Shown: positions 8,472 through 32,990 of the stretch, piece after piece
Numbering within the stretch: the first letter of the stretch is position 1
Layout of the letters: each line of letters begins with the position of its first letter
Assembly: GCA_947626145.1 (NCBI GenBank)
Contig: CANQRB010000004.1
Location: 29,250 to 93,249, forward strand
Length of the DNA stretch: 64,000 nt
Direction of reading: 5' to 3'
Source of the DNA: an uncultured Clostridia bacterium
GTDB taxonomy: Bacteria > Bacillota > Clostridia > UMGS1883
Notes under the pieces: generated by a model
Told to the model about the DNA's origin: nothing
The model's database searches: none
What the model saw: only the letters and a program-made list of their open reading frames with translations
Position numbers and translations under genes: made by a program

Positions 8472-9041
8472 TTGAGCGGATTGGCGGCGGAGCACGAGGA
8501 ACTTAAATGGATAAGGAAAATCAAGCTGTTCGGTTCAAAAAAAGACGCCGACAGTCTGGTTCGGTCTTATTACGATGAGATTTACAGATATGTATCCCGA
8601 CAGCTTCCCGACAGCGGGGACGCCTGGGATCTTACTCAGGAAATCTTTATATCCATGCTGCGCTCCATAAAGTCGTACAAAAAAGAACGGTCGTCCTTCC
8701 GCACATGGCTGTACCGCATCGCCACAAACAAAATTATAGACTGCCGCCGGAAAAAGGTTCCGACGACTGCCGCGCCCGACGAAGTCAATACAGCCGACGA
8801 TGCCGATTTTATAAGTCAAATCGCCCAGGCCGAGCTGCTGAAAAAAATCGAGGGCTATGTCAACCGCTTTTCGCCCGCCGTGCAGCAGATATACAGACTG
8901 CACATTTACGGGGATTTTACCTTCGCAAGCATCGCTTCAGCCCTGGACATCCCTGAGGCCACCGTAAAATCCCACTATTACAGATTGCAGAAAAAAATAA
9001 GAGAGGAGTTTGGCGATGAGTACAGAGACGTTGTCGAATGA
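8472..9041 (+). CDS. ECF-family RNA polymerase sigma factor
   Basis: Region 2 (DAWDLTQEIFISMLRSIKSYK...FRTWLYRIATNKIIDCRRKK) and region 4 HTH (FASIASALDIPEATVKSHYYRLQKKIRE). The start is TTG 8472, or more likely TTG 8481, which lies 9 nt after GGAGG. Confidence 0.9.
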   Translation: MSGLAAEHEELKWIRKIKLFGSKKDADSLVRSYYDEIYRYVSRQLPDSGDAWDLTQEIFISMLRSIKSYKKERSSFRTWLYRIATNKIIDCRRKKVPTTAAPDEVNTADDADFISQIAQAELLKKIEGYVNRFSPAVQQIYRLHIYGDFTFASIASALDIPEATVKSHYYRLQKKIREEFGDEYRDVVE

Positions 9042-10600: not shown

Positions 10601-11751
10601 AACTGATAAAATCGGAAATTAAGAAGCTTGTATTTAACAAAAGCCTGTATTTTTTTCTGGCCATTTGCCTGACGTTAAATCTTGCGCTGATCGCTGTGAC
10701 GGGCGGCGAACGTTCTTATATAAAATATATTGGAGAAATCACGGCGAACGCCGGAGACAGGATCAACCGTTCTTTTCTTAATTATGTCAGCGCTTTGCCG
10801 GACAGCGAGTTCATCGACCGCCTCACAGCCGCCTGTGCCGGTGCGGGAAAAATCTTCGACAGCTTTGACGCGGCGGCATTGGGCAGAAACTGGTATTATG
10901 ATGAATACTATATAAAGTCCTCTTTCCTTCATAGAATGTTATATGAGAAATACGAAAAATTAAACAATTCAGTGAAATTGCTGAATTCCGAAAACGCCGA
11001 TCTGTCCGTTTACGGGGCCGACGCCACGGGGAATTTCCATGAGGCTCTGTTTACATATACACTCAAAGCGCTGATGATAGAGGGATTTATACTTATTTCT
11101 CTCCTTACGATCCACATAATGGGCATTGAACGTCAAAGCCTTACCGAGTCCATAATATATTCCAGCCGAAGAGGTCGGGCCCTTGTCAAAGACAAAATGT
11201 GCGCCGCCTGGATAGTGAATACCGGCTGCATCTTGCTGCTGTACGGGTCAACGCTGGCGTTTTTCTTTTCGGTATGGGATATCGGCGGCCTTTGGGAAGC
11301 CAACGTGTCAAGCTGCTTCCACCTTGTGACGGACGTTGATCTGCCGTTTCTGAAGCCTTTCCTCACTTGGACAAGCTTCACGGTAAGAGAGTATTTCACC
11401 GCGACTCTGCTTTTGGAAGCCGCATTGCTGTTGGTGTGGCAGCTCATATCCTCCTGCATCGGAATTTTGTGCGGCAGTTCCGCCAAAGGATTTCTGACGG
11501 CGGCGGCCTGCCTTACGGGTCCGTATTTTCTGCCGTTTGTTTTTAAATCGCTGAGCTGTGGGTGGTCATTTTATATTAACACCTTTTCCATCTCAATGTT
11601 AACGCTTAATCAGCATTTGTGGTTTACGGACATGGGTGTTTACGAGCTGCTGCCGTGGCAGGAAACCTTGTCGGCCGGAATACATTTATCCGTGTGTGTT
11701 CCGCTCTTTTTTACGGCAATTAAAATATTCAAAAGAAGGGAGCTGATGTAA
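10597..11751 (+). CDS. ABC-2-type permease-like membrane protein
   Basis: 384 aa. It has an N-terminal TM segment, a large loop and a C-terminal multi-TM block. Its start overlaps the ATPase stop by 4 nt. Confidence 0.65.
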   Translation: MKLIKSEIKKLVFNKSLYFFLAICLTLNLALIAVTGGERSYIKYIGEITANAGDRINRSFLNYVSALPDSEFIDRLTAACAGAGKIFDSFDAAALGRNWYYDEYYIKSSFLHRMLYEKYEKLNNSVKLLNSENADLSVYGADATGNFHEALFTYTLKALMIEGFILISLLTIHIMGIERQSLTESIIYSSRRGRALVKDKMCAAWIVNTGCILLLYGSTLAFFFSVWDIGGLWEANVSSCFHLVTDVDLPFLKPFLTWTSFTVREYFTATLLLEAALLLVWQLISSCIGILCGSSAKGFLTAAACLTGPYFLPFVFKSLSCGWSFYINTFSISMLTLNQHLWFTDMGVYELLPWQETLSAGIHLSVCVPLFFTAIKIFKRRELM

Positions 11752-12933
11752 ATGTTTGTCTGGGAGCTCAGAAAAGTTTGGACAAAGGAGCATATCTTAC
11801 TCATCGCCGCGGTCACGCTTCTTTTTTCTCTGACCTTTCTTGTACCGCCAATAAGGTCGGTGACTGTGACAGAAGAGGGCGAGGAAATCTTCTCCGCGAG
11901 GATGGGGATAATCAAGGAGTGGCTCAATAAATATGACACACAAATTACGCCTCAGGAATTTGAAGAGATAAAAAGGATCTATGATGAACGCCTTTCCGAC
12001 GGACAGGCTGTCATTTCAACGCAGCCCTATTTCGCGGAGAATAATGTGTTTACTTATGACGACTATCTTTCTTACGGTAATAACGCCCTGAACGGCGCGG
12101 AAGGCTACTCCTACGACAGCTTCCGCAAAATGCGTGAGTTCATATCCGAAGGCACCGATTATTCCGCCATGTATTATCAGGAGTATGAAGATCTCATACA
12201 TAAATATGTTGACGGCAGCTCGCGAAAAGCTCGTTATATTGAAACGCTCCTGTCCGGCAAAGCCGAAAAGGCCGCAATATCCGAGCTCGACACGCTTCGC
12301 CGAACCAAAGGCGTCGGCAGTCTGCTGCCCGGCGAACTTGTGTACGCCGCAAACCGTTACTATGTCAACCTCTCAATTTTGCTCATTATATTGGCGATGT
12401 TCATTTCCGGGCCTGTCATGGTCAACGATAATGCCAATAACATTCGGCCGGGGCAATACAGCAGCAAAATCGGTCTCAAAATATATCAGCGTCAGTATGC
12501 GGCCATGGCGGTTTCTCTTTCCGCACTTACGGCACTCATGCTCATCGGCAGCTTGACGCTTTGGCTTGCAGTCGGGGCCGGCCGCTTTTTCCAATGCGGC
12601 ATCTTTGCTTTTCAAATGATGGAAACGCCGGTGACGGGCGATCTATCGTTTGGCGTGTATTTGGTTTTGATTTCGGCGCTGATTTTTATTCTTGTAAACG
12701 GTGTTGGCGGGCTTATGTTTTATCTTTCCGGCACGAGCCGCAATTTTATCGAGATGCTGATGAAATCGATACCCGCCGCGGTTTTTGGGATAATGCTGTC
12801 GCTTTCTTTAAATGACCTGTTTCTCAATACAAACTTTCTTTTCCGTATGACAGGGATAAGAGGTGTGGAGATTTTTCCGGTTATTTTGATTTTCATATTT
12901 GGATTATTGATAAATTTAAAAGGGATACGTTAG
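11752..12933 (+). CDS. Second ABC-2-type permease-like membrane protein
   Basis: 393 aa with the same architecture as the preceding gene. It starts immediately after that gene's stop codon. Confidence 0.6.
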   Translation: MFVWELRKVWTKEHILLIAAVTLLFSLTFLVPPIRSVTVTEEGEEIFSARMGIIKEWLNKYDTQITPQEFEEIKRIYDERLSDGQAVISTQPYFAENNVFTYDDYLSYGNNALNGAEGYSYDSFRKMREFISEGTDYSAMYYQEYEDLIHKYVDGSSRKARYIETLLSGKAEKAAISELDTLRRTKGVGSLLPGELVYAANRYYVNLSILLIILAMFISGPVMVNDNANNIRPGQYSSKIGLKIYQRQYAAMAVSLSALTALMLIGSLTLWLAVGAGRFFQCGIFAFQMMETPVTGDLSFGVYLVLISALIFILVNGVGGLMFYLSGTSRNFIEMLMKSIPAAVFGIMLSLSLNDLFLNTNFLFRMTGIRGVEIFPVILIFIFGLLINLKGIR

Positions 12934-13092: not shown

Positions 13093-13404
13093 CTATTCTA
13101 ACTTTTTTTGATAATCGCTTTTAGCATAAACGACTCTCGTAACAGTTATCAGCTTCTCGCGCTCATCCACACGATAAAACATAATATAATTCTTAATCAG
13201 CAGTTTACGGTACTCATATTTTAAAGTTTGGAGTGGGCGATAAACAGGCATGGAATACGGAAAAACTCTGATTTTTTCCGCTTCGGTTATAAACTCCTCA
13301 GCTAACCGTCCGGCCGCAATGGGATTTGATAATGTTTTGCCGATATATGTCACAATGTTAATCATATCCTGTTGGGCGATAGGCTGAAACTCCAAATCAT
13401 ACAT
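13093..13404 (-). CDS. Type II toxin, RelE/ParE superfamily
   Basis: About 103 aa (MYDLEFQPIAQQDMINIVTYI...YIMFYRVDEREKLITVTRVVY). The ATG overlaps the end of the antitoxin gene. The fold-family assignment comes from sequence resemblance. Confidence 0.8.
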   Translation of the reverse strand: MYDLEFQPIAQQDMINIVTYIGKTLSNPIAAGRLAEEFITEAEKIRVFPYSMPVYRPLQTLKYEYRKLLIKNYIMFYRVDEREKLITVTRVVYAKSDYQKKLE

Positions 13405-13675
13405 TTTCGGTTTCTCCAATCGCCTCGCGCATATTTTTCAAGACTTCTTTTGGTGAAAACCGCTTGTTTGTCATTTCCGCCTCATACTCCGCCTCCTTAA
13501 GCTTAAAGTACACTTCGCTTTCAAACTGAAGATTTTCATAAGCTTCCATACTCATAACAACCATGTCGCCAAAACCGTTTTTTGTTAAGAAAACGGGCTG
13601 CTTTGTTTCGTGGACTGTCTTGGAAATATCCGCAAATTTATTTCTTAAGTCCGAAACGGGTCTTATTAAATTCAT
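13397..13675 (-). CDS. Type II antitoxin, Phd/YefM family
   Basis: MNLIRPVSDLRNKFADISKTVHETKQPVFLTKNGFGDMVVMSMEAYENL is a typical Phd/YefM N-terminus. A GGAGG RBS precedes ATG 13675. Confidence 0.85.
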   Translation of the reverse strand: MNLIRPVSDLRNKFADISKTVHETKQPVFLTKNGFGDMVVMSMEAYENLQFESEVYFKLKEAEYEAEMTNKRFSPKEVLKNMREAIGETENV

Positions 13676-13704
13676 AAAAATTCCTCCTATCATATTATGA
13701 TTGT

Positions 13705-13733
13705 ATTTTAGCACAATTATGCTAAAATTGCAA
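13705..13733 (-). promoter_or_regulatory. TA operon promoter with embedded palindromic operator
   Basis: On the minus strand: TTGCAA, a 17-nt spacer, then TAAAAT with an upstream TGc. A perfect palindrome TTTTAGCA-6 nt-TGCTAAAA (13706-13727) fills the spacer. Confidence 0.7.
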
Positions 13734-13927: not shown

Positions 13928-16900
13928 TTATAAGGCTATCATACCATCAGTTTCATCATTACCATTAAGTTCTTCGTCCTTTTTGCCTGTGTTTTTATTC
14001 TCAGATATATCTCCTTCGAAAGCTGTTTCGACGGACTCTTCATTTTTAAGTTCTTTGCCTCCAAACTCATTACTGATATCCTTTATTGGCACTTTGTCTG
14101 GCAAGGATTCAATAGAAACTAGTGACTCTTCATCATGATAATTTATTAATATGCCATTAGATATTTTGAATACAGGCCAAGAGTTTCCTGATTGGTTAGA
14201 AGAAACTTTGTACACCTCAACTAAGTTATTTCCATTATATAACTCTACCTGTGCACCCGAAGTCGCCCAAGTACCTTCACCGTAGAACCAGTATACATAA
14301 TATTCATATGTGCTATTTATGTCCACTTCAAATGTAACGGTTTCCGGCCCTTCTCCATCGGTATCATCCACATCCAAATTGGCCACCAAATCTCCTGATG
14401 CATTATATCCGTTTCTGTTAGAAAAATATACATGAAAGTTTCTATGGTCTGAAAGGCTTCCAACCAAATGAGAGTCTAAGTCGCTGGGATTCATGTTCCA
14501 ACGAAGAACTGCCCTATATTGATTGCTAGTCATCGAAGGAGAAATGCTTCCATTTTGATTGGCAACTTCTCTTCCCCCAATTATTGTGACGTTGAAATAT
14601 CCGGTGGTGTATCCGTACTTTTCCATTTCTATTGTATAATACCCAGAGGATGCAGTTAGTGAATATTCACCACTACCGTTAGTTATTGTTGAAGATATTT
14701 CCTCACCTTTACTACTATTCCACCCGTTTCTCAACCTGACTATTACGCCATCAATAGGATATCCGGTTGTTGCGCTTGTAATAACGCCGCTTATTTTTCC
14801 TTCACCAGACTTTACAAGTTTAACAAGTTCTTCTGTTTGGTTGTCTTTTGTTACTGTCGCAAGCCCGTAGAAAGGCATATAACCGTCTTTTTCAATAACA
14901 ACAGAATATGTTCCCACATCAAGAGACAGTTCTTTTGCTCCCTCTGCGCCTATTTGAACTTTCCCAATCAAGAAATCATCATCAAGTATAGATATAGTTG
15001 CATCTTTTATAAATGTTTCATCTTCCGCATCAACAATTTGTATATAAAGAGTACCTCTATCCCCATATATACCAACATCATCAAATGCACGTTTTATAGT
15101 CATTTTTTCCGCTTTAGACAATCCCTGAGTATCAGCTTGAAGCAGTACATTTCTCCTTACGGTTTTAAAGTTAGAATTTGCACTGAAGCCCTTGCCCAAC
15201 GAACCATACCATAGGTCTATAAGCTTAGACATTGAAATGGCCGGAAGACTATAAGAGGGATAGCCTTGTGACATTAAATATGCAGCATGAGAAATTACTG
15301 ATGAATTCGTGTGAGCAAATACTGATTTATTACCAGTATTAGTGCACCAATTAGTTCCACCAACTTTACTGGGCTTATGGCAGGAAGATGGATCCTTAAC
15401 ATTTCTTAATGGTCGCCAGTCCTCCCCTATGGTATAGTTATTATCATCAACGAACCATCCAAAGATATCTGCGTATGCTTCGTTGATTGCATAAGATATA
15501 TGACCATTACTGTGATCGTGACTAAGTCCATTCCCTGTCTTAAACTGAACTACTCCATGAGTGTACTCATGAGCAATAATATCAAGTCCGCTGGCCGTAG
15601 TAGTTTGGAGATTACTGTCGTTATTACTATTATCATAAAAATAGAATTCTTTGTTGCCGCCTGTCCAACACGCATTACTACTGCCTCCAAATTTATGAAC
15701 AGTTACTTTAATAGGATATCCATTCCCGTCCACAGAGCGTCTGCCCAAAGTGTCCGCATACCAATTATATACATCTATCATATTGGTGTATGCAGAAATA
15801 GCCGTTTTATCTCGCCATACATTAAATTCACTGCCAACTCTACTATTAACAAGTCCCCCATCATACATTTTAATGTTTCTCTCTGAATCTTCCATATAGT
15901 AGAATAACCAATCCCATTGTTTAAATTGTACGGGGAATGACACTTCGGTATTTTTTTCATTTTCACCGCTACCAGTTACTCTTTTGTCGCCCCAGTCTAA
16001 AATATTGCTTCCAGAATAAATTACGGAACCAGTATATCCATTTATGATTACAGTTTCGTCAATATTGTCGCCAGACAAACAAATTACATATGCTACAACA
16101 GGACTTTGCTCATATTCATCAAGAGAATATATAACTACCTCTGTTGATACAACATCTACTGATTCTTGCGGGTACTGACTTTTAGCAATATTTATTGCTT
16201 CACTTTCTGATATCACGGGGTCGGTATTTACATCAACTAAGTTTGCAGATGCAACTACATCGGATGTTAATGAAGTAGATGTTCCATTATTATCTACAGA
16301 CACGGTTAAATTTCTATCATAAACGTCAAGCCCATTATATTGTTGACTAAAAGTATAATCAGTTCCGTATTTGCCAGAATTTGTCACAGATATATTTAAT
16401 TCTTTTATTGGATCGTTCATGCCAAGAATTGTTCGAACTCCGTATATTGCATAAAGAGCATCGTCTGGGGAGTTTATATCAATATCACTTATTTTACCAC
16501 TTATCGCTGTTACTTGGGATCCCTCTTCATTGTATTCTATATAAGTATCAAAATCTGCATCCTTATTCATTTGCTCTATATCGACAACTGAATTATTAGG
16601 AGACTCATTAATATTAAAGTTACTTTCTTTTATAACCGTAACTTCAAAAGATTTTGTTAAATTATAGTCTCCTTTCGATATGCTAGCGTTGAGTCTAACA
16701 TTTTTATTCTCATTTATCGGACGTGAGACGGAACCGCTTTCTGAAACTACATTAATATTGTTACTTTCCCATGATATATCTACTGTTTCAATCATTGTTG
16801 GTAAAATCAAATCATGAGTAACAGATTCTTTACAGTCACCTTTACTATATGTAATTTCAAGAGTATCATATGCATATTGAACTATCGCTTTATTAAATTC

Positions 16901-18244
16901 ATTCTCATCATATTCTACCCACCTTGCATACAAAGTTAATTTATTGTTAACGGCCAATTTAAAATCATAGATATTTTCGCAATCCCTATCAGTATACCAG
17001 CCACCAAACAAATAATCTTTACGTTCAGGGTCTTTGGGAATTGTAACATTATTTCCAGCTAAAATCTCTTGACTTTCAGGCGCATCCTCTGCCCCTTCAT
17101 AATTCAAATCAAAGGTGACAGTGTAAACGCCGTCCTCCTCAATTTCTTCTTCCCAACCAGCATACAGAGTCAAGCGCTCGGTAATTTCCGTGTTCTCAAA
17201 ATCAAACTCATAAACGCATTCCTCATCTGTGTACCAGCCCGTGAAGATATAGCCCTCTCTTTCGGGATCATCGGGACGCTCTGCATAATCGTTCTTCTTT
17301 ACTTTCTGGGTAGCCGGAGGATTTTTCGCTCCTGAATAATTCAGGTCAAATTTTACATTGTATCTCGTGGTGCCGCCGGAGCTTCCGCCACCACCGCCAC
17401 CACCGGTGGAACGACTTATCGTATATTCAACGCTCATCACATCGCTGACAAGAACATCATCTTTTACCGCGATTGCCTTCAGTGTCGCGGTAGACAGTAT
17501 ATTTATATTGCCACCTGTGTATTCCTCGCTGTCAACTGTGGGCTCTGTTCCATCGGTCGTATAGTAAATCTTAACGCCCTCGGTGTCGCTCTTAAGCGTT
17601 ACAAGCTGATTTACATAATATGTGCCCGCCTCAACGGACGCGACAGGGGCGGCTACCGTTGTGCGGAGACCGTTATAAACCATTACGGCAATGTCCCCAC
17701 GGGTAGAGGCTGATCCCTTTCTGCCCTTGAGGTTATCCGTTATACCGTTATCCTCAGCCGCTTTAATATAGCCGGCAGACCAATCATCAGGGTCGGATTC
17801 AACATCGTCGCCAAGACCGACGCCGCAAACCACCATCTTTATGGCCTCTTCATATTTGACGTCGTCATCCGGCATAAATCCGCCGCTACCGTTGCCGTTT
17901 ATTATCTCCTCTTTCGCGGCGACATTGATGTAGCCGCTGGCCCAGTGGTCGGCGGGAACATCGTCAAACTTTGTGGCGCCCTTGGAATTGCGGGCATCGT
18001 TCTCCTTGCCTATCATGCGGCATACTACCGCCGCCATTTCGGACCTTGTGATAGATTTATCCGCCCCAAATGTACCGTCGGCGTAGCCGGTGAAAATGTC
18101 GAGCTTTTCCAGAGCGAGAGCCGCCTCGGCGTAATACTCATTCCCCGTAACATCGGAAAAGACCGTGCCTGCGGCAAAAGCACCGATCGGCGCAAGCGAC
18201 AGTGTCATTGCCAAAACTAAAATGATGCTTAAAAATTTTTTCAC
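13928..18244 (-). CDS. S-layer-homology-anchored multidomain M4 (thermolysin-like) metalloprotease
   Basis: GTG start 8 nt after GGAGG, then a signal peptide. SLH-type repeats are present (FSDVTGNEYYAEAALALEKLDIFTGY..., FDDVPADHWASGYI...). A poly-Gly linker follows. Two InlB-B/Listeria-Bacteroides-type repeats are seen (YNVKFDLNYSG...GYIFTGWYTD, YTVTFDLNYEG...DYLFGGWYTD). The zinc site is IIAHEYTHGV with a downstream NEAYADIFG. C-terminal beta-sandwich-like repeats complete the protein. Confidence 0.9.
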   Translation of the reverse strand: MKKFLSIILVLAMTLSLAPIGAFAAGTVFSDVTGNEYYAEAALALEKLDIFTGYADGTFGADKSITRSEMAAVVCRMIGKENDARNSKGATKFDDVPADHWASGYINVAAKEEIINGNGSGGFMPDDDVKYEEAIKMVVCGVGLGDDVESDPDDWSAGYIKAAEDNGITDNLKGRKGSASTRGDIAVMVYNGLRTTVAAPVASVEAGTYYVNQLVTLKSDTEGVKIYYTTDGTEPTVDSEEYTGGNINILSTATLKAIAVKDDVLVSDVMSVEYTISRSTGGGGGGGSSGGTTRYNVKFDLNYSGAKNPPATQKVKKNDYAERPDDPEREGYIFTGWYTDEECVYEFDFENTEITERLTLYAGWEEEIEEDGVYTVTFDLNYEGAEDAPESQEILAGNNVTIPKDPERKDYLFGGWYTDRDCENIYDFKLAVNNKLTLYARWVEYDENEFNKAIVQYAYDTLEITYSKGDCKESVTHDLILPTMIETVDISWESNNINVVSESGSVSRPINENKNVRLNASISKGDYNLTKSFEVTVIKESNFNINESPNNSVVDIEQMNKDADFDTYIEYNEEGSQVTAISGKISDIDINSPDDALYAIYGVRTILGMNDPIKELNISVTNSGKYGTDYTFSQQYNGLDVYDRNLTVSVDNNGTSTSLTSDVVASANLVDVNTDPVISESEAINIAKSQYPQESVDVVSTEVVIYSLDEYEQSPVVAYVICLSGDNIDETVIINGYTGSVIYSGSNILDWGDKRVTGSGENEKNTEVSFPVQFKQWDWLFYYMEDSERNIKMYDGGLVNSRVGSEFNVWRDKTAISAYTNMIDVYNWYADTLGRRSVDGNGYPIKVTVHKFGGSSNACWTGGNKEFYFYDNSNNDSNLQTTTASGLDIIAHEYTHGVVQFKTGNGLSHDHSNGHISYAINEAYADIFGWFVDDNNYTIGEDWRPLRNVKDPSSCHKPSKVGGTNWCTNTGNKSVFAHTNSSVISHAAYLMSQGYPSYSLPAISMSKLIDLWYGSLGKGFSANSNFKTVRRNVLLQADTQGLSKAEKMTIKRAFDDVGIYGDRGTLYIQIVDAEDETFIKDATISILDDDFLIGKVQIGAEGAKELSLDVGTYSVVIEKDGYMPFYGLATVTKDNQTEELVKLVKSGEGKISGVITSATTGYPIDGVIVRLRNGWNSSKGEEISSTITNGSGEYSLTASSGYYTIEMEKYGYTTGYFNVTIIGGREVANQNGSISPSMTSNQYRAVLRWNMNPSDLDSHLVGSLSDHRNFHVYFSNRNGYNASGDLVANLDVDDTDGEGPETVTFEVDINSTYEYYVYWFYGEGTWATSGAQVELYNGNNLVEVYKVSSNQSGNSWPVFKISNGILINYHDEESLVSIESLPDKVPIKDISNEFGGKELKNEESVETAFEGDISENKNTGKKDEELNGNDETDGMIAL

Positions 18245-18342
18245 GATTGTAACCTCCAATTTTATTTATTCACTTTCTAATTGCAGGAAAACACCGCCAC
18301 TGTATGTCACGCCCCCTTTTGGGCGAATTTGTCCTCCGTACA

Positions 18343-18623
18343 ATAAAAAATGCGCAGCTCATCGGAGCCGCGCACGAAAAATGCTTAGCTCCGAATTTAC
18401 TGCGACATAAATTAATATAACACAAAAGAAACGCATTTTTGGCACTCGCTCATTAAAAATGCAACCAGAGCGTTACAGGAGCAGCATTTTTACCAATGCT
18501 AATGTTGCTCCGGTTAGCACTTTTATACGTTAGAATGTTAAAACAATGATAGAAAATATAGGTACTCAAAAAAGAGCGCAAAAAGCGAACTTAATAAGCG
18601 TTTCTATATTAATCTATGTCGCA
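18343..18623 (-). ncRNA. Candidate ~280-nt structured leader or ncRNA upstream of the protease gene
   Basis: The predicted TSS (~18622) coincides with the 5' arm of a long-range helix. Arm 18598-18623 pairs with arm 18401-18434 over 19+7 bp, with one G-U pair and an 8-nt bulge. The unit ends in the hairpin GCGCGGCTC-cgat-GAGCTGCGC plus T6 (18343-18373). An upstream UCGGAGC (18388-18394) can pair instead with the terminator 5' arm. Confidence 0.4.
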
Positions 18624-18628
18624 AATAA

Positions 18629-18657
18629 AGTATACCACACATTTTTCCGGTTGTAAA
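18629..18657 (-). promoter_or_regulatory. Strong sigma-70-type promoter driving the leader/ncRNA
   Basis: On the minus strand: TTTACA, a 17-nt spacer, then TATACT with an upstream TGg (extended -10). Confidence 0.65.
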
Positions 18658-19187
18658 GTGTTTTTTTTTCGTAAATGAATAATTTTTTATAACATATTCG
18701 CCGCGAAACCCATCTAGGCGCTTATCTTGCTGCTGAACGGCTCCCCGACTGTTTTACAAAAGAGTCGAACATTGCACAAATTCGTTCTTCGTAGGAAGGA
18801 GCTGCCACAACATTTCCCTCCTTTTGCTAAAAATTGTTCTTGGTCGGTTTTCCCCCCCTTTGTAATACCGGAACAATTTAAGTTATACAAAATCGGAAAT
18901 TTTTTTAAATTATCTGAAAAAGTCAAAATAAAAAGGACAGATTAATATCTATCATTCTCAGTATTCAATTACATCGCCTTTAAAAATCCCCTCCGGCGCA
19001 TGAGGGGGTTTACGCCGGAGAAAATTTTATATATCAAAGAGGCCCGTGCCTCTTAATTTTTGCGGCCGGTTATGCCTGAGTCGCGGCGTCCGTCTTGACT
19101 CTGCGGAAGCGCACCAGACCCGTACGGTGAAGGGCAACCATTATTGCCGGGATAAGCACAAGTTGAAGTATTATTCCGGGGATGGCG

Positions 19188-20000
19188 TTAAGCACCGCAG
19201 TCTGCGCAGGACAAAAAACCTGAAAAGATGTCGATTTCGCCTGACTTTGTTGGTCTATGTTGCATGGCGATCCGCTTCTGTGCAAGCTCAAAGATTTCTT
19301 CGTCAATTAACGGCTCATGCGTATTAGGTAAGAAATAGCGTTGTTCTGCCTCTTTTTCGACTTATACGAAACCTTGTGTGTTTTCTCAGTGATGATATGC
19401 CCTAAATACTTTTACCGTGTCAGGATGTCAAACAGCGTTTTCTCCGGCCATGTGTAAGGAGCGATCAAGGCTTTCTGATGTCGCGCATTCCTCGTCCGCT
19501 CATAACGTAATGCACCGATTGTCAAAACCTTGTTGTCGTCAAGCCATCGCTGAATATCGCACATCTGAGTATCCTTCACATACATGACGAAAATCTGCTT
19601 GACTATGAGATGTATCCGTATGGATATTCCCCGTTGACGTGCTCGCCCTTTTGAGTCCGCGCCTGCTTTGCGGCTCGGTGGTTGTCGCTCGGCATATTCT
19701 CTCGGATATGTGTCATGGCACACCCGCCGTATGGCTCGGCGCAAAAGGGATGTGTCCTTTGTTGCTGTTATGATGCCTCGCTGTTATCTTGCGGGCAAAT
19801 TTGTCGAGGTTCGTACAGATGGGGAGTATCGGAAAGGGGGATTTATGCGCCGCTCCAGGTCGTCGGGTCAGTTCACCTGAAAAGTCAGAATTTTTGTAAT
19901 GAGCTTCGTTTCCAGTCTGCTGATCTTCGTCTACGCACAAATGAGGATTGCCATACTCGTCGTTTTCGATGTACACTGTATGATCCAGAATACCGAAAGC
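19188..20000 (-). pseudogene. Decayed large serine recombinase (conjugative-transposon/DUF4368 type), frameshifted and 3'-truncated; bounds approximate
   Basis: Fragments in different frames resemble this family: IVKQIFVMYVKDTQMCDIQRWLDDNKVLT...YTWPEKTLFDILTR (19412-19744) and NTHEPLIDEEIFELAQKRIAMQHRPTKSGEIDIFSGFLSCADCGA* (about 19188-19325). The latter is the recombinase/Zn-ribbon region, cut right after CxxCG. Confidence 0.6.
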
Positions 20001-20366
20001 CCTGTCCTCTTTGAAATAACTGTCTCAGACTGAAAGCTGATTCATTACTTCAACAGGAAATTCGACAAAGAAAATCGCCTGCCTGCACATGGCAGGCGGG
20101 CGAAACGGAACTAACAGAAGTATTTACGTGATTTATGTGTTCATCTTCCTCGGCAGGGTATCCCGCTTGCTGGGTCAGACTTCTTTTGAGCGAAGAACCA
20201 TTGCCGGAATTTGTCGATATGGAATAGGCTTCATGGCGGCTACCTCCTGTTAGCCGCCATACCTGTTAGCCTGCAGTTTCTTCCCTTGTATCAAGAGAAA
20301 TGGCAGCCTATGAAAAACAAGCATATAACCAAGAGCAGCAGTATATAGGCTCTGCGTCTATGCGTC

Positions 20367-20513
20367 TTACTCTTTTACAACCTCGATCCGTAGGTGTTCC
20401 TCGTTAATCAGCGTTTTGCGTTTGCATTTGGGACAATACAACGGAAAGTTCTCCAGAATGGTATCTTCCAGTATTTTAATTCGTGTTTTGCTTTTACAAA
20501 CAGGACACAACAC
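20367..20513 (-). CDS. Cysteine-rich KTR-domain small protein (about 48 aa from a GTG start)
   Basis: Hand translation gives VLCPVCKSKTRIKILEDTILENFPLYCPKCKRKTLINEEHLRIEVVKE*. The CPxC...KTR...CPKC pattern is typical of small proteins found beside recombinases in clostridial mobile elements. The start codon is uncertain. Confidence 0.55.
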   Translation of the reverse strand: MLCPVCKSKTRIKILEDTILENFPLYCPKCKRKTLINEEHLRIEVVKE

Positions 20514-20716
20514 CAAAACGCTTTTATTTACTCCGATTCGAACTACTCCCTGCGAATTGCAATAAGTGTTTTAAACTATTACCCTCAACAAAGCACAACA
20601 ACCAGATATTTCCTGACGGCAATTTTTTGCGAAATGATTCCCGTAATTATCGTCGATGCATTGCTGTGAGCAGGTATTTATTTTGTAAAAAGTCGTTGCT
20701 GCCCGTATTTTAATTT

Positions 20717-21340
20717 TTACGATTTTTTGAACTTCGTTTTAAGCGCCTCAAAGTTTGCTTTCAGCTTGGCACGCTCAGCTTCCATTTTCTGCTTGCGTTC
20801 TGCGCTACGCTCAGCGTGCATCTTACGGCGAGCTTCGTCGGCAAGTTCTTTTTCTACGCGCATTGCTTCTTCTACCTCGTCCTGTACCAATGTAGCATCG
20901 CGTCGAAGAATCGTCGTTTGAAACTTATCGAACCGAAAATCCAGTGCATGATCTGTTTCCTCCTGCGCAAGGAGAAGAATCGCGACCTCACCGTCCTCCA
21001 GCTTTGATCCAACCGTTTCCAGCATTGTGTTGTTCCGATCCACATCATCAATGTCTTTGGCGCTTCCAATCAGATGACCTGTCATACCACCCAAAAGGAT
21101 GCCGAGAGGACCACCGAGAATTCCGATCAGACCGCCAATCAGACCGCCCGCGAGGGCGTCATCGCTGCTGTCCATGCCGCTTGTGAATGAGTCTATGGTG
21201 GAAATTATATTACCGTTTTTCTTTACAAGCGCCCCTTGCAATACGGTATATTGCGGCATAATTGGCTGCTTTTTGATTCCCATGTAGGCTTGATAGCCCT
21301 CGCTTTCCACATTGAACAAAATAGTTAAGACATTTTCCAT
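20717..21340 (-). CDS. Glycine-zipper membrane/stress-type protein (DUF1269-like, from memory)
   Basis: 207 aa. A central AGGLIGGLIGILGGPLGILLGGMTGHLIGS glycine zipper is followed by a K/E/R-rich coiled-coil tail. Confidence 0.65.
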   Translation of the reverse strand: MENVLTILFNVESEGYQAYMGIKKQPIMPQYTVLQGALVKKNGNIISTIDSFTSGMDSSDDALAGGLIGGLIGILGGPLGILLGGMTGHLIGSAKDIDDVDRNNTMLETVGSKLEDGEVAILLLAQEETDHALDFRFDKFQTTILRRDATLVQDEVEEAMRVEKELADEARRKMHAERSAERKQKMEAERAKLKANFEALKTKFKKS

Positions 21341-21538: not shown

Positions 21539-21988
21539 TTATCTCCTGTTTGCTTTTTTCAGTTCCTTTTGGGCGGCTTTGATTTCCCGTTGCAGTTCGT
21601 CAAGTTCCTGTTCCAGTGCGTCGGCAATATAATCTCCGGTAATCACAGCGGCACGAATCATACAGGCGGTGCTTACAATGGCATCCTCCACCTCTTTTCC
21701 GAGTCCGAGGAGTTCCAGAGAACCTGTGCCGTTTTCATCGTACAGCACCACGTCCGGAATCCCGTTTTTATCCGTGTCTCCGAAGTACAGATTGAATTCT
21801 CCGTCGCCGGTGAGATCCACCGCCAGCGTGTCAATATCTCCGTCGCCGGTGGTATCAAGCAAAGCCAAATCCGCTTCTTTATCTCCGTCAATATCGATCA
21901 AAATCTCGTCTTTTCCACTGCGAAGCAGTGTCTTGTGCCAGTCGCGGTCAAATTTCATTTTAGTTTTCAATTTTCTGAGGGTTCCCAT
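21539..21988 (-). CDS. Acidic protein with repeated EF-hand/DxDxDG-like calcium-binding loops
   Basis: 149 aa. Loops seen: DIDGDKEAD, DTTGDGDID, DLTGDGEFN, DTDKNGIPD and DENGTG, then a C-terminal coiled coil. An AAGGAG RBS is present. Confidence 0.65.
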   Translation of the reverse strand: MGTLRKLKTKMKFDRDWHKTLLRSGKDEILIDIDGDKEADLALLDTTGDGDIDTLAVDLTGDGEFNLYFGDTDKNGIPDVVLYDENGTGSLELLGLGKEVEDAIVSTACMIRAAVITGDYIADALEQELDELQREIKAAQKELKKANRR

Positions 21989-22414: not shown

Positions 22415-22987
22415 TTATTTGTGCGGAACAGGATTGTTTTTACTCAAAATATGCTTATAGTATCGGATATAAAGGATGAGAGACATAATCATCAAACATC
22501 CGCTTATTAGAATTAGACCATTTGCTATTTTCAATGGGATATCGGGGAAAAGGATAAGCACAGATATAACAATATACAAAAAAACTGTGTTCAACTTTCC
22601 ATACCATTTTGCGCTGTTGACAGTATCTTTTCGTTTCAAAGCAAGATATCCAAGCGTGGCCATGCAGATTTCTTTTCCGATAAACAATACGATCAGAACA
22701 GACATCCACTTATACCGACTCGAAAGGCAGACAATAAGTACACATTGCGTCAATTTATCCGCTATGGGGTCTAATATCTTGCCAAGATCGGATACCATAT
22801 GGAACTTCCGTGCAATGATACCATCAGCAATGTCCGTAATTGCTGACGCGACAAGCACTCCTGTGGCTGCTTGGTAGTGTTTGACCCCGATATAAAGCCA
22901 TACGATCAGCGGGATCATCAGTAATCTTATAACGCTAAGCAAATTCGGTATGGTCAGGATTTGGTCTTTTTTGAATATCCTGTGCAT
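22415..22987 (-). CDS. CDP-alcohol phosphatidyltransferase family protein
   Basis: 190 aa, polytopic. Signature D-x2-DG-x2-AR...G-x3-D-x3-D is seen as TDIADGIIARKFHMVSDLGKILDPIADKL. A GGGAGG RBS is present. Confidence 0.9.
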   Translation of the reverse strand: MHRIFKKDQILTIPNLLSVIRLLMIPLIVWLYIGVKHYQAATGVLVASAITDIADGIIARKFHMVSDLGKILDPIADKLTQCVLIVCLSSRYKWMSVLIVLFIGKEICMATLGYLALKRKDTVNSAKWYGKLNTVFLYIVISVLILFPDIPLKIANGLILISGCLMIMSLILYIRYYKHILSKNNPVPHK

Positions 22988-23005
22988 TGAATATCCTCCC
23001 TTAAT

Positions 23006-23851
23006 CTATTCCGTTTCATCTGATCTCATTTTTGCAACAGCCTCTTTATAGAACACATCCAAATCTCCGATATAATTTTCTTTCCACGGTTTATTCCTTC
23101 CGCAGTAGTGAATTATAATGGAGTGCTTTCGTACCCAATTCAAATCAAGACTTTTTTCAAATGGACTGTGCACCCGATAAAGCCACTCTGTCATGTTATA
23201 TCGAAATGGGTCCAGCGTATAGATTTTGCTGCCATACAGGCTGCTGATAATGTCCTGATCCGGAAAGACAAGATGAGATTTTCTCTTTTCGATGAAGTGA
23301 AACACATCCGCATAGTCCTGCTCTTTCCGTAAAAGCGAGAGGTTCATGAGCAACACGCCGGAATTAATATATGGGCTGTTGTCATCCATATCCAGACGCA
23401 GTTCATTGAACTTATGGAGAAACCCAAGACTGTCAATGTGTGACGCTGCCGCATAATAGTATTCTTCCATCGAGGTCTGATACAGTGGAAGAATCGAACC
23501 ATTGAGAACAAGATCGGGGTCAAGATAGAGCACGCGGTCGAGAGTCTCCGGCAGATAGCGTGCAGCAAAAATACGGTAATAAATCTCTTGTGGATAGCGC
23601 GAAGTTGTTGGGGCCTCGTCAAGCGCCAAATAATCAGCCTTTATTGGGATCAGACATCCTCCTGCCTTAAAAAGCATTTTTTCGGTTGCTTTAAGCGCCT
23701 GCTTTGAAATTGAGGAATGAAGAAGATACACATGGAATACGCAGCCTGGGTTGGAGCGAATCAAGGTTGAAAGCATCACATTCAAATAGGGGATGTAGTT
23801 TTCATCCAAAGTAACAAGAATATTAATCGGATTTATCAATCCAGGATTCAT
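23006..23851 (-). CDS. Glycosyltransferase family 8 (GspA-like)
   Basis: LVTLDENYIPYLNVMLSTL, the DxD motif in YLDPDLV, and NSGVLLMNL. ATG 23851 lies 6 nt after GGGAGGG; the ORF-track start at 23899 is less likely. Confidence 0.85.
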   Translation of the reverse strand: MNPGLINPINILVTLDENYIPYLNVMLSTLIRSNPGCVFHVYLLHSSISKQALKATEKMLFKAGGCLIPIKADYLALDEAPTTSRYPQEIYYRIFAARYLPETLDRVLYLDPDLVLNGSILPLYQTSMEEYYYAAASHIDSLGFLHKFNELRLDMDDNSPYINSGVLLMNLSLLRKEQDYADVFHFIEKRKSHLVFPDQDIISSLYGSKIYTLDPFRYNMTEWLYRVHSPFEKSLDLNWVRKHSIIIHYCGRNKPWKENYIGDLDVFYKEAVAKMRSDETE

Positions 23852-23917
23852 TTTAATCCCTCCCTGTTTCTTATGTTGTATATAGTCTTCTTCACCCATT
23901 CACAAATCCTACCATTT

Positions 23918-24625
23918 CTATCGTGGTTTCAGAGTATTTTTATTTTGTTGGGTCTTTTTTAAGAGGTTATCCATTCTCCGATCAAGTTCCGCGCTGAGGT
24001 TTGCGCACTGATAAAGTTCCTCAGCCATTTCCGGGGTAAATGCAGAATCCTTTTTATAACGAAGCTGATGTTCAAGGCTGGCCCAGAAATCCATCGCTAT
24101 CGTGCGCAGCTGAATTTCTACTTTCATCATCCGTTTTTCATGTGCCAAAAAGATCGGAATTGCTACAATCAGATGCAGACTTCTATATCCGTTGGGTTTC
24201 GGGTTTTTTATGTAGTCCTTTTTTTCAATCAGGGTAATGTCATCCTGTATGAGCAATGCCTCTGACAGCGCATAAACATCGTCCGGAAATGAGCAGATTA
24301 CTCGAACACCGGCAATATCGTTTAGATTTTCTTCTATAGAGGAAAGTGTGGGCGGGATGCCCCGCCGCTCCAATTTTTCTTTTATGCTGCGGGGATTTTT
24401 CAGTCTGGTTTTGATACTGCTTATCGGATTACGGTCGAATTCCAAAGAATATTCTTCATTCAACACATTGAATTTTGTTTCAATCTCCATCATGGCACAT
24501 TTGTAATAGGACATCAGGCGGATAAAAGGTACAGATTTTCTCTGCATCCAGTCGATTGTCTGATCGTCCACAATAGAGAGCATTCGTGTTTTTATATTTT
24601 CATCCTCTTGATTCCATTCAGACAT
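23918..24625 (-). CDS. Small alarmone synthetase (RelQ/RelP-type GTP pyrophosphokinase, RelA_SpoT domain only)
   Basis: About 235 aa: IKTRLKNPRSIKEKLERRG...DIAGVRVICSF...KPNGYRSLHLIV...VEIQLRTIAMDFWASLEHQLRYKK. There are no hydrolase or regulatory domains. Confidence 0.9.
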   Translation of the reverse strand: MSEWNQEDENIKTRMLSIVDDQTIDWMQRKSVPFIRLMSYYKCAMMEIETKFNVLNEEYSLEFDRNPISSIKTRLKNPRSIKEKLERRGIPPTLSSIEENLNDIAGVRVICSFPDDVYALSEALLIQDDITLIEKKDYIKNPKPNGYRSLHLIVAIPIFLAHEKRMMKVEIQLRTIAMDFWASLEHQLRYKKDSAFTPEMAEELYQCANLSAELDRRMDNLLKKTQQNKNTLKPR

Positions 24626-24692
24626 TCTGATCTTCCTTTCCAAAAAACAAAGCTTGTTGGATCAATACCGGCTCTGCCGCTTTTCGCAGGTA

Positions 24693-24726
24693 ATGATAGC
24701 AGAGAAAACTAAACTGAAACAAAACA
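24693..24726 (-). promoter_or_regulatory. Box 2: 20-bp box plus -10 hexamer upstream of the SAS operon
   Basis: Sense strand reads TGTTTTGTTTCAGTTTAGTT-8 nt-TATCAT. It matches boxes 1 and 3 at 17 of 20 positions, and its 8-nt spacer (TTCTCTGC) is identical to that of box 1. Confidence 0.6.
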
Positions 24727-24818
24727 ACGACGGACCCTTCGAAAAAGAAGAATCCGTCTGACCGCTTTACGGCGGAAGTAATAAACTAATTTTATAACCA
24801 TTTCGCAAGTTGACTGTA

Positions 24819-28928: not shown

Positions 28929-29714
28929 TTATCCAATGCCTCTGAAAGCATTAACGGAAAGAATCGCCACGCCTAAAACCGTCAGCACCACACCAACAGC
29001 CCTGTTGAGCGTTTTGGCGCTGGCCTTGTTTGCGAACAATGCGGCGATCCTTGCCCACAACAGAGTAAACGCCACGCAGAGAGCGAGACACCATAGGTCG
29101 GGCATATCGCCAATGGCAAAATGACTGACGGCGCCGGTCAGCGCGGTAAAGGTCATAATAAAGACACTGGTACCCACAGCGGTTTTTAATTCATATCCCA
29201 AAATGCTGGTCAACAGAAGCAGCATCATCATTCCACCGCCTGCGCCCACAAAACCACAAATGAAGCCGACGACCATTCCGCAGACAATCGACTGAATCGT
29301 CCGCTTTTTTGCGCTTACGACAGCCATCGCCTCCTTTGTGGTCATGACAGGTTTTACAATAAATTTGATGCCCAAAAGCATCGTCATGAAGACGGAGAAG
29401 CTGCCCATAGTGGCGTTGGAGACCAGACTGGCTACCCAACTGCCTACTAAGGTGAAAAGCAAGACGGCCACCATCATAACAAGCCCGTTGCGAATGTCGA
29501 TGTTTTTGTTTTTTCCATAGGTATAGGCGCTGACCGCACTTGCCAGCACGTCACTTGCCAGAGCGATGCCTACCGCTTCATAAGCCGGCATACCCATAAA
29601 TGTGATCAGCATTGGGCTGATGACTGCGGCGGCGCTCATTCCGGCAAAACCGGTTCCCAAACCCGCTCCGATACCTGCTATAAAACAAACTAAAACTTTT
29701 ACCCACAGATTCAT
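28929..29714 (-). CDS. TSUP (TauE/SafE) family permease
   Basis: About 261 aa from ATG 29714, which has a GGAGAAAAA RBS. It is polytopic with Gly-rich helices (GAGLGTGFAGMSAAAVISP..., GFVGAGGGMMMLLLL). Confidence 0.8.
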   Translation of the reverse strand: MNLWVKVLVCFIAGIGAGLGTGFAGMSAAAVISPMLITFMGMPAYEAVGIALASDVLASAVSAYTYGKNKNIDIRNGLVMMVAVLLFTLVGSWVASLVSNATMGSFSVFMTMLLGIKFIVKPVMTTKEAMAVVSAKKRTIQSIVCGMVVGFICGFVGAGGGMMMLLLLTSILGYELKTAVGTSVFIMTFTALTGAVSHFAIGDMPDLWCLALCVAFTLLWARIAALFANKASAKTLNRAVGVVLTVLGVAILSVNAFRGIG

Positions 29715-29845: not shown

Positions 29846-30940
29846 TCAGTTTTTCTGGCTTTCTTCTTCTGCATTTAGCTTTGATTTCGGCAATGTAACC
29901 GTAAACATGGTAAGATTGTTTTCGCTTTGAACCGAAACCGTTCCGTTGTGCAATTCCACCACTTTTTTGACAATTGCAAGCCCGATTCCGTTTCCCTCAC
30001 CGGAGTGTGAACTGTCAGCCTGATAAAATTTCTGAAAGATTCGTGATATACTTTCCGCAGGAATTTCCTCTCCCGAATTGATGATATCCACGGACAGGGA
30101 AGACGGTTGATTTTTAATATTGACTTCAATGACTCCTCCAGCGGGAGAAAATTTGATCGCGTTATCCAGCAGATTGATCCACACCTGTTTCAAAAGCTCC
30201 TCATTGGCAGAAATCCTGTATTCACCGAAATCCACTTTAAAGTCCAGTTGCTTTTTTTCCCACTTGTCGGCAAGCAACAGGATGGAAGACCGGATTTGTT
30301 CTGAAAGGTTAAACTTTACAACATCCGTTAAAATCGTTTGATTTTCTACCCGCGTCAGATTCAACACGTTTGTCGCCATATCAGAAAGCCGCAGAGATTC
30401 TTCTTCGATAACCGCCAAATATTCCCCTTTTTGTTCTTCTGTCAGGTTGCCTCGGCGAAGCAGCTTTGCAAAGCCGGCAATAGATACGATGGGCGTTTTG
30501 AATTCATGCGAAAAATTATTTACAAAATCCCCACGAAGCATCTCTGTATTTTTGAGTTCAGAAGCCATTCGATTGAAGCTGTGCGAAAGCTGCGAAAAAG
30601 TAGGATGTTTGGATATGGGCCATCCGAAATCCAATCGGGCACTGAAATCACCGGATGCCAGCCGATCGATTTGATAAATTACATTCCGCAGGGGGCGGGC
30701 GGATATTTTACTGGATAAATAGGCAACAATGACACCGACAATATTACTGATGACGATCATGTAGAGGATGATAATACCGATGTTTGATCGGATATCGGTA
30801 TCAAGCGTGACAACTTGAAAATGTACCAGCATATAAATAATAGAAGCGGTTATTGAAGTAATAATAAATTGAATGAAAAAAATAAGTGTCGATATTAAAA
30901 ACGTGAGCGCAAAATAATGTTTTCGATTTTGTTTGTTCAT
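29846..30940 (-). CDS. Sensor histidine kinase, intramembrane-sensing architecture
   Basis: Two TM helices are separated by only about 13 residues (FQVVTLDTDIRSN). HAMP follows, then the H-box FSHEFKTPI and an HATPase domain (NLLDNAIKF, GNGIGLAIV). Confidence 0.9.
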   Translation of the reverse strand: MNKQNRKHYFALTFLISTLIFFIQFIITSITASIIYMLVHFQVVTLDTDIRSNIGIIILYMIVISNIVGVIVAYLSSKISARPLRNVIYQIDRLASGDFSARLDFGWPISKHPTFSQLSHSFNRMASELKNTEMLRGDFVNNFSHEFKTPIVSIAGFAKLLRRGNLTEEQKGEYLAVIEEESLRLSDMATNVLNLTRVENQTILTDVVKFNLSEQIRSSILLLADKWEKKQLDFKVDFGEYRISANEELLKQVWINLLDNAIKFSPAGGVIEVNIKNQPSSLSVDIINSGEEIPAESISRIFQKFYQADSSHSGEGNGIGLAIVKKVVELHNGTVSVQSENNLTMFTVTLPKSKLNAEEESQKN

Positions 30941-31611
30941 ACTTTTTTCACCGCCTTATATCCGAGCCCGCGCACGGATTCGATATCAAATTCTTCCCAA
31001 CCCTCGAACCGTTTGCGGAGCCTGCCGATGTGAACCGTCACAGTTTCCCACCCGGTATCGCTCTCAGCGCCCCAGATTTCATCCATCAGTTGAATCCGTG
31101 TAAAAATCTTTCCGGGGTATGACAGCAATTTATAAAGTAACAAAAATTCCTTTTGCGGGAGTTCTTGTGTCTCGCCGTTTTTGGTCACGGTAAAGGAATC
31201 GTAATCCAAAATTACATTTCCAATCGTCATTTTACGTTCGTTGGCAATTTGAGCGCGGCGTAGAAGTGCTTTGATTCGCCAGAGCATTTCTTCCTCATCA
31301 ATCGGTTTTGTCATGTAGTCGTCAATCCCTAATGAAAAACCTTTATGTTTATCTTCGGGGAGCTGTTTTGCCGAAACCATAAGAATGGGAAGATTGTTCT
31401 TGCTTTCGCGGAGGATTTTTGTAAATTCATATCCGTCCATTTTCGGCATCATTATGTCGAGAATCACAAGGTCAATATACTCTTTATCCATTACATCGAG
31501 GGCGTCTTCACCGTTTTCCGCAGTAAATACAGAATAGTGCTCCGTTTCAAGCACGGCTTTGAGCAGCCGGCGTGTATTTTTATCGTCGTCTACAACAAGA
31601 ATTTGGAACAT
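30937..31611 (-). CDS. OmpR/PhoB-family response regulator
   Basis: Receiver domain (ILVVDDDKN...DLVILDIMMPKMDG...MVSAK) plus winged helix (VTVHIGRLRKRF...VRGLGYK). Its stop overlaps the kinase start by 4 nt. Confidence 0.93.
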   Translation of the reverse strand: MFQILVVDDDKNTRRLLKAVLETEHYSVFTAENGEDALDVMDKEYIDLVILDIMMPKMDGYEFTKILRESKNNLPILMVSAKQLPEDKHKGFSLGIDDYMTKPIDEEEMLWRIKALLRRAQIANERKMTIGNVILDYDSFTVTKNGETQELPQKEFLLLYKLLSYPGKIFTRIQLMDEIWGAESDTGWETVTVHIGRLRKRFEGWEEFDIESVRGLGYKAVKKV

Positions 31612-32871: not shown

Positions 32872-32883
32872 AAATATAAAAAT

Positions 32884-32990
32884 CTAACGATTACTCAATA
32901 ATCCAACGATTACCCCAAAAAACTAACGATTTCCCATAAAACCAACGATTTCCCATAAATCCAACGATTTCCCATAAATCCAACGATTAC
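32884..32990. repeat. Six iterons with an AACGATT core at 19-20 bp spacing
   Basis: Cores lie at 32886, 32905, 32925, 32944, 32963 and 32982. The middle units are near-identical (CCAACGATTTCCCATAAAT). Confidence 0.9.

Follow-up and report, generated by a model that had tools for sequence, protein, structure and literature searches.

Transcription of relP and relQ is under the control of envelope-stress systems, through VraRS in Staphylococcus aureus and through WalR in Bacillus subtilis (PMC10117726; PMC6606846), and in Streptococcus mutans relP lies in one operon with the two-component system relRS (PMC4963387). In Clostridioides difficile, the two-component system HexRK drives the glycolipid-synthesis operon hexSDF, which alters membrane composition and affects daptomycin and bacitracin resistance (PMC10128005). 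The response of small alarmone synthetases (SAS) to envelope stress is established, and the partners to which it is coupled are poorly understood. Here we analyse a stretch of 64,000 nucleotides from an uncultured Clostridia bacterium (assembly GCA_947626145.1, contig CANQRB010000004.1, positions 29,250 to 93,249 of the forward strand), called the window below. In it, a gene for a RelP-type SAS is followed by those of a GT8 glycosyltransferase (GT8) and of a CDP-alcohol phosphatidyltransferase (PT). A RelP-type gene thus shares its cluster, or its predicted transcript, with phospholipid and glycolipid enzymes, and this is the case in several lineages of gut Clostridia.

With VraRS-relP of S. 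aureus, the window shares a RelP-type single-domain synthetase with the same catalytic residues and the same rigid G-loop proline, and presumably the mainly transcriptional control via envelope-stress signalling. In contrast, its response regulator (RR) is of the OmpR type and is paired with an intramembrane-sensing histidine kinase (HK), and its SAS shares a predicted mRNA with GT8 and PT. VraR is a NarL-type regulator; to our knowledge, relP of the known envelope-stress systems is in no case co-transcribed with lipid enzymes. In B. subtilis, ywaC and gspA (ywaG) presumably lie close together, in the vicinity of the dlt operon. The relPRS operon of S. mutans likewise links relP physically to a two-component system, and three loci related to the window (L008, L019 and L037; such loci carry L numbers throughout) show the order RR-HK-(TauE)-SAS in one direction. 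However, relPRS contains no lipid or glycosyltransferase genes, and the SAS gene of the window has its own promoter, 5 kb away from the two-component system. HexRK-hexSDF resembles the window in joining a clostridial two-component system to an operon whose products, among them a glycosyltransferase of the MGDG-synthase type, act on lipids and glycolipids, but it lacks an alarmone synthetase, and its enzymes are an MGDG synthase, a deacetylase and an MprF-like flippase, not a GT8 and a CDP-alcohol transferase. In the literature searched, whose coverage is incomplete so that this is absence of evidence only, we found no description of an alarmone synthetase within lipid operons driven by a two-component system. 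Control of RelP by such a system was already known; the present analysis adds a link to phospholipid enzymes that recurs and had gone unremarked, together with an orphan family of CDP-alcohol transferases.

The three open reading frames are co-oriented on the minus strand. That of the SAS (24625-23918, 235 aa) matches the Pfam family PF04607 (RelA_SpoT) at 3.4e-33; that of GT8 (23851-23006, 281 aa) matches PF01501 (Glyco_transf_8) at 2e-35; and that of PT (22987-22415, 190 aa), a multi-pass membrane protein, matches PF01066 (CDP-OH_P_transf) at 2.4e-37. The three genes are real and lie where they were placed in an earlier annotation of the same DNA made from its letters and open reading frames, which we call the sequence-only reading. 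A ribosome-binding site (RBS) stands ahead of each gene, and for the SAS it is GGAAAGGAAG, upstream of the ATG at 24625. An alternative start of GT8 at 23899 would extend the protein to 297 aa; the start at 23851 is more likely, owing to its better RBS (GGGAGGG) and to the coinciding starts of homologues. The SAS-GT8 gap then measures 66 nt (18 nt with the start at 23899) and the GT8-PT gap 18 nt: the sequence-only reading had both values right and merely swapped their order, which is trivial. Independent assemblies of this organism show the trio in the same arrangement: three ENA contigs have it, and four short Logan contigs are consistent with it.

A terminator scan of the trio interval gave no terminator-like site between the three genes, and a promoter scan returned a single, chance-level match (9/12), inside GT8. 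Upstream, a terminator-like hairpin of 12 pairs followed by a T-rich tract (GTTGTTTTGT, 24758-24729, minus strand) closes the Hsp70 operon just past the Hsp70 gene. It is directly abutted by the promoter and leader of the SAS operon (24649-24728, minus strand), made of a box (GTTTTGTTTCAGTTTAGTTTT), 6 nt, the -10-like hexamer TATCAT and a leader of about 60 nt with its RBS. The trio has a box promoter of its own, its genes are closely spaced, and no terminator-like site separates them; all this fits a single transcription unit, and we take the trio to be co-transcribed, as the sequence-only reading had proposed.

The box, GTTTCGTTTCAGTTTAGATT followed by a -10-like hexamer, is the putative link between the trio and a regulator. 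The window contains four copies of its 15-mer GTTTCAGTTTAGATT, none with more than one mismatch and each on the minus strand: ahead of the RR gene (31678-31645), ahead of an operon for Zn-ribbon, DUF5685, DnaJ and Hsp70 proteins (28724-28691), ahead of the SAS gene (24728-24695), and 11 nt past the PT stop codon (22404-22371). In plus-strand order, the copy directly upstream of the SAS gene comes second, which makes the earlier placement of the trio downstream of "box 2" correct; the copy past PT is also labelled the fourth. The promoter of the operon thus shares a putative operator with that of the regulator itself. Across the window and six related loci, all 18 instances of the box are co-oriented with the downstream gene and lie 45-80 nt from its start codon, and each has a TAnnAT -10-like hexamer behind it at constant spacing. 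In these loci the promoter of the regulator gene carries the box wherever its upstream DNA was covered. We infer that the box, a conserved tandem element of the GTTT type, is the operator of the RR, standing in for a -35 element as in activation by regulators of the PhoB/OmpR type.

The exact box is confined to loci whose regulator is at least 80% identical to that of the window, or that are otherwise near-identical to it (L010 and L011, whose contigs end before the regulator gene). It is absent beyond these closest relatives and was rejected as a general feature of SAS orthologues. At L019, where the regulator is 54% identical, a different motif, read by eye, is common to the promoter of the regulator and to that of a SAS-PT pair.

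No terminator was detected after PT, so that transcripts may read through into the module headed by the fourth box. By repeat comparison, that box and the leader behind it (22404-22325, minus strand) are 86% identical to the leader of the SAS operon, a long likeness that results from duplication. The leader itself is not kept in L010, L011 and L013. A riboswitch or other leader RNA ahead of the SAS gene was also considered and rejected, a search of the whole window with Rfam at gathering thresholds having returned one tRNA only.

The RR, of the OmpR/PhoB family (30937-31611, minus strand), has a box in its own promoter, and the adjoining HK (29846-30940, minus strand) has two N-terminal transmembrane segments separated by a loop of about 10 residues, which by its sequence is the architecture of intramembrane-sensing kinases. 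As the same box precedes the RR/HK genes and two other operons, we propose that the low-GC island carries a regulon for envelope or membrane stress that regulates itself and has the trio among its output modules, so that (p)ppGpp synthesis and lipid remodelling are induced together; we would put the probability of this reading at about 60%. The HK would sense membrane perturbation, with antimicrobial peptides, detergents or bile as candidate signals, and the phosphorylated RR would activate the box promoters. The SAS would then turn ATP and GDP or GTP into (p)ppGpp and slow growth, while the soluble GT8 and the membrane-bound PT, made from the same mRNA, would alter the head groups of lipids or glycolipids. 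Other outputs of the regulon would be its own two-component system along with a protein of the TauE family, the set of Hsp70, J-domain, DUF5685 and Zn-ribbon proteins, and two proteins of 149 aa and of the DUF1269 family. Binding of the RR to the box, the inducing signal, the products of the enzymes and selection for their coupling are all predicted here from sequence. Under this hypothesis, membrane-damage signalling triggers growth arrest by (p)ppGpp and lipid remodelling as one programme, which would bear on the tolerance of gut anaerobes to membrane-active antibiotics, antimicrobial peptides and bile.

The SAS consists of one RelA/SpoT synthetase domain (PF04607 at residues 79-199 of a 241-aa form), with no hydrolase or regulatory domains. 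Among structures in the PDB it matches S. aureus RelP at 3.4e-52 (180.6 bits) and B. subtilis YwaC/RelP at 4.8e-50 (173.6 bits), and RelQ/YjbM at 1.3e-35 (126 bits); against the NCBIfam equivalog for YjbM (RelQ) it scores 170.8, below the cutoff of 320. The sequence-only reading had left the type as "RelQ/RelP": RelP stands, with 180 bits to the S. aureus enzyme against 126 to YjbM, and RelQ does not. The SAS and RelP are about 50% identical. In S. aureus RelP, R78 and R112 stack on the adenine, K80, S84, K88 and R91 contact phosphates, D107 and E174 coordinate Mg2+, H190 binds the ribose, and the guanosine-binding G-loop contains Y151 and the RelP-specific proline P146 (PMC5794853, Steinchen et al.). 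Catalytic-residue loss, which the sequence-only reading had named as fatal to its proposal, is not seen: all 11 of these functional residues are present, as R74, K76, S80, K84, R87, D103, R108, P142, Y147, E170 and H186. RelP is reported to be active without allosteric stimulation (PMC5794853), which makes transcription its natural control point.

GT8 is soluble, without transmembrane segments, and its domain is full-length (123 bits against a cutoff of 24.3 for PF01501, covering profile positions 1-252 of 253). Both hallmark motifs are intact: the DxD motif as DPD111, and the C-terminal His motif (H..G..KPW) as HYCGRNKPW248. Its closest solved relative is a GT8 of Anaerococcus prevotii (3TZT, 2.3e-62), and it also matches Neisseria LgtC (1G9R, 3.8e-19); both share with it the full-length GT8 fold, the two motifs and solubility. 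However, 3TZT is uncharacterised and has no known substrate, and LgtC is a distant relative.

PT keeps the CDP-alcohol signature and the residues that bind metal and CDP (D52, D55, G56, A59, R60, G69, D73, D77, N15 and K131). With the motifs of GT8 and the catalytic residues of the SAS intact as well, the three family assignments of the sequence-only reading are upheld. It had also called for profiles of substrate families to be run on PT. They place it in none: PT scores 87.1 bits against the NCBIfam pgsA model TIGR00560 (cutoff 109.1), 61.7 against PRK10832 (304), 85.2 against CDP-type ClsA (240), 27.7 against PssA (107) and 22.2 against PIP synthase (170). Its identification as a housekeeping PgsA, ClsA, PssA or PIP synthase was rejected, every score being under the curated cutoff.

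The comparison with S. aureus PgsA (PDB 7DRJ, 1.4e-11; PMC8640168) points the same way. The two proteins share the fold family, the signature D-x2-DG-x2-AR-x8-G-x3-D-x3-D and the CDP-contact residues N5, R65 and K135 of PgsA. In the latter, a basic pocket of K83, R110, R118, K137 and Y181 holds the 3'-phosphate of glycerol-3-phosphate (PMC8640168). Transferred to PT through a HMMER alignment, K78 and K105 are kept, whereas R118 becomes G113 and K137 becomes N133: two of the four alignable basic residues are replaced, Y181 being unalignable. Both replacements extend to the PT family. Among 46 distinct members, the position of K137 is never lysine or arginine (V, T, N, S, C or A are found there), and that of R118 is G, A, N or S and basic only once. 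By sequence, PT is not a clear or canonical PgsA; since two basic residues of the phosphate pocket are replaced, its acceptor is probably other than glycerol-3-phosphate, with CDP-diacylglycerol as the probable donor. The analysis thus flags an uncharacterised family of CDP-alcohol transferases linked to two-component systems. Its members recur beside cytoplasmic glycosyltransferases (GT8, or a CrtO-like acyltransferase with GT28) and beside DagK, CdsA and PlsC.

The sequence-only reading had suggested a genetic link between the alarmone and membrane lipids; such a link is backed by SAS genes that adjoin lipid genes in several unrelated arrangements, the trio itself being unconserved. At least eight different arrangements pair the two, usually with a related two-component system. 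Directly beside SAS genes of the RelP clade we found PT, GT8, PLD/cardiolipin-synthase-like enzymes, CdsA, DagK, a PlsC-type acyltransferase, GT28 and VTT/DedA proteins. L019 reads RR-HK-SAS-PT, followed by a CrtO-like acyltransferase and a GT28/MGDG synthase. On the metagenome contig L095, the trio is reordered: a PT fused to a VTT/DedA-type domain, a GT8 (55% identical) and a SAS (62%) follow each other with overlaps or 7-nt gaps. L109 carries a hydrolase, RR, HK, PT, a 163-aa protein, a PlsC-type acyltransferase, a DagK/YegS lipid kinase, an 81-aa protein, the SAS and CdsA, and these genes overlap or stand no more than 105 nt apart. L151 has the order SAS-Cls(PLD)-PLD-RR-HK-FUSC-PT, and in L168 a SAS 91% identical to that of the window is followed by a 49-aa open reading frame, a VTT-domain gene, FtsH and an ABC/FtsX transporter.

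The pairing was counted from both sides. On the SAS side (80 species-level genome loci, orthologues 62-96% identical), PT is the next gene after the SAS in L011 and L019, in L013 the two are 3 kb apart, GT8 comes next in L010 and L012, and two PLD/cardiolipin-synthase-like genes follow in L036 and L042 (SAS-PLD-PLD). In 1.04 Mb of SAS loci there are 13 lipid-family hits, and 6 of them begin on the same strand no more than 222 nt past the SAS stop codon (a crude P of about 1e-5 if placement is uniform). When the seeds are limited to those chosen a priori, PT and GT8, four of five matches fall within 80 nt of the SAS. On the PT side (80 metagenome loci, PT 43-59% identical), an RR/HK pair (53% and 39% identical, respectively) lies on the same strand within 3 kb upstream of PT in 21 of the 36 loci with enough upstream DNA. 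Another lipid-family gene is present within 6 kb of PT in 32 of the 80, and a SAS gene in L095, L109 and L151, each time in another layout. The SAS identities over these arrangements range from 52 to 92% and the lipid enzymes vary, so that one inherited ancestral operon is insufficient as an explanation.

In a very common human-gut organism (L116, L151 and similar contigs), Cls(PLD)-PLD-RR-HK-FUSC-PT forms one co-oriented cluster; at L151 the genes just upstream of it are the SAS and a choloylglycine (bile-salt) hydrolase-like gene.

Several observations weigh against a trio built as one output module. The full set of SAS, GT8 and PT occurs in none of the 80 species-level SAS loci: in exact form it is known from the species of the window only, besides the contig L095 with its other gene order. 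Where at least 1.5 kb of sequence was available beyond the SAS, the next gene downstream belongs to a lipid family in 6 of 64 loci (9%), and about 90% of the orthologue loci have no adjoining lipid gene. The closest SAS relatives, L008 and L009 (96% identical), lack both GT8 and PT and have a transporter instead, in the layout RR-HK-TauE-(ZnR)-SAS, then a box and an ABC/FtsX transporter of about 1000 aa. The locus is mosaic: identity to L010 is uneven (92% for the SAS, only 69% for GT8), and the decayed duplicate of GT8 and PT behind the operon speaks of recent rearrangement in the window. The P value for adjacency is indicative only because some seed families were picked after inspection of the loci, and the PT-side counts are not independent because many contigs come from the same human-gut species. 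Finally, the action of GT8 and PT on lipid or glycolipid head groups is a prediction.

These points give substance to the main rival explanation, in which the linkage is incidental: the island would be pieced together from cassettes that each begin with a box and recombine there, and SAS, GT8 and PT would be independent stress effectors sharing nothing but a regulator. Among close relatives the content of the cassette does vary (the SAS alone, with GT8, with PT, or ahead of a box and the ABC transporter), and the duplicated box and leader with their GT8/PT remnant, the uneven L010 and the roughly nine in ten orthologues without a lipid neighbour all fit this account. It explains less well why the pairing reappears at 52-68% SAS identity with other gene orders, other lipid enzymes and another regulator box, or why lipid-family matches bunch immediately downstream of the SAS. 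Incidental linkage is in our estimate the less likely account, yet, as the linkage is missing from most orthologues, it still carries considerable weight.

A bolder version of the proposed regulon is tentative and, on balance, doubtful. Here the PT family would be a CDP-alcohol transferase of new specificity, without the glycerol-3-phosphate pocket, that makes a stress-induced phospholipid or phosphoglycolipid, such as a phosphatidyl-glycolipid or a lipid resembling cardiolipin. In gut Clostridia, the embedded RelP would act as a checkpoint and hold growth back until the membrane has been renewed by a dedicated second phospholipid pathway that the two-component system activates.

It is improbable that the three enzymes form one biochemical pathway, in which the SAS would supply a pyrophosphorylated nucleotide used by PT or GT8, or its alarmone would control them allosterically. 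Tight coupling would suit this idea, given the gaps of 18-66 nt in the window, the overlapping genes of L095 and L109, and the SAS gene embedded within the PlsC-DagK-CdsA-PT set of L109. However, the SAS keeps every residue of a standard ATP:GTP/GDP pyrophosphokinase at about 50% identity to RelP, and most of its orthologues stand alone, without lipid genes. We also know of no CDP-alcohol transferase or GT8 enzyme that uses 3'-pyrophosphorylated nucleotides, which counts against it.

That the SAS is a toxSAS or anti-phage effector with an antitoxin or immunity protein beside it is hardly credible and was rejected: its catalytic core matches the PADLOC candidate PDC-S33 (2.9e-24), a 79%-identical relative sits on an element with a MobA/MobL relaxase and in about 10 species the gene right behind the SAS encodes a small membrane Zn-ribbon protein, but the PADLOC match covers only profile positions 64-175 of 349 (the catalytic core), the likeness to the 7ZTB and 9ERV chains (deposited as "RelA/SpoT family protein", and which we take to be CapRel-type) is a marginal 1.6e-4 against 3e-52 to housekeeping-type RelP, the promoter box is common to chaperone and transporter operons, and in the window there is no conserved small cytoplasmic partner, nor does any small partner gene adjoin the SAS.

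The element just mentioned (L170, 1-8684) is of Lachnospiraceae and also carries genes for an APH-type kinase, acetyltransferases and a Zn-dependent phospholipase C. Horizontal transfer appears to occur in this clade of SAS.

The remaining genes of the predicted regulon lie on both sides of the trio, on the same strand. A TauE/SafE family membrane protein (28929-29714) is co-oriented after the kinase gene. The box-headed operon between it and the trio (28648-24819) encodes a 136-aa membrane Zn-ribbon protein, a DUF5685 protein, a J-domain/TPR protein and an Hsp70 paralogue, and looks like a stress-inducible set of specialised chaperones; in the literature searched, DUF5685 was mentioned in a single paper, an in-silico one. 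The order DUF5685-DnaJ-Hsp70 recurs in L010, L011 and L037, with the Zn-ribbon gene in L011 only. Homologues of the 136-aa protein (40-51% identical) directly follow the SAS gene in about 10 species with a SAS 62-76% identical (L022, L027, L039, L045, L054, L059, L064, L066, L069 and L078), and the Zn-ribbon gene is a commoner partner of the SAS than any lipid gene.

Past the trio, a decayed second copy of the 3' end of GT8 and the 5' end of PT, with deletions and no start codon, was recognised by repeat families (22290-22040, minus strand); this vestige of a duplicated module suggests that the boxes were sites of recombination. It is followed by the gene of a 149-aa acidic protein of no family (21539-21988, minus strand), downstream of the post-PT box and conserved in L009 and L011, which is probably in the same regulon as the trio. 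The last gene of the cluster encodes a DUF1269 membrane protein (20717-21340, minus strand).

The transporter seen at related loci is a fused ABC-ATPase/FtsX permease of about 1000 aa (L008 10824-13826, L009 6998-10006, L011 6765-9788 and L168 10459-13467), placed directly behind a copy of the box in L008, L009 and L011. It resembles peptide-antibiotic detoxification transporters and was not detected in the window.

The genes of the predicted regulon in the window belong to a low-GC island of about 4.5-33.5 kb (GC 0.31-0.47, against 0.56-0.62 in the flanks). Its two edges have no repeat of at least 13 nt in common that could mark attachment sites, and no integrase was seen among the large open reading frames of the window. 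Near one edge lies a tRNA gene with a long variable arm (33244-33157, minus strand), and the AT-rich spacer between it and the promoter region of the regulator contains 5.8 tandem copies of the 19-nt unit AAATCCAACGATTACCCAT (32880-32990). Further cargo includes an ECF sigma factor, an ABC ATPase and unassigned membrane genes (8472-12933, plus strand), a PhdYeFM/ParE-type toxin-antitoxin pair (13093-13714, minus strand) and a 1443-aa SLH-anchored M4 peptidase (13928-18259, minus strand). Between the peptidase and DUF1269 genes, about 2.4 kb (18260-20716) contain no open reading frame longer than 110 aa and gave no match to Rfam at E of at most 0.1.

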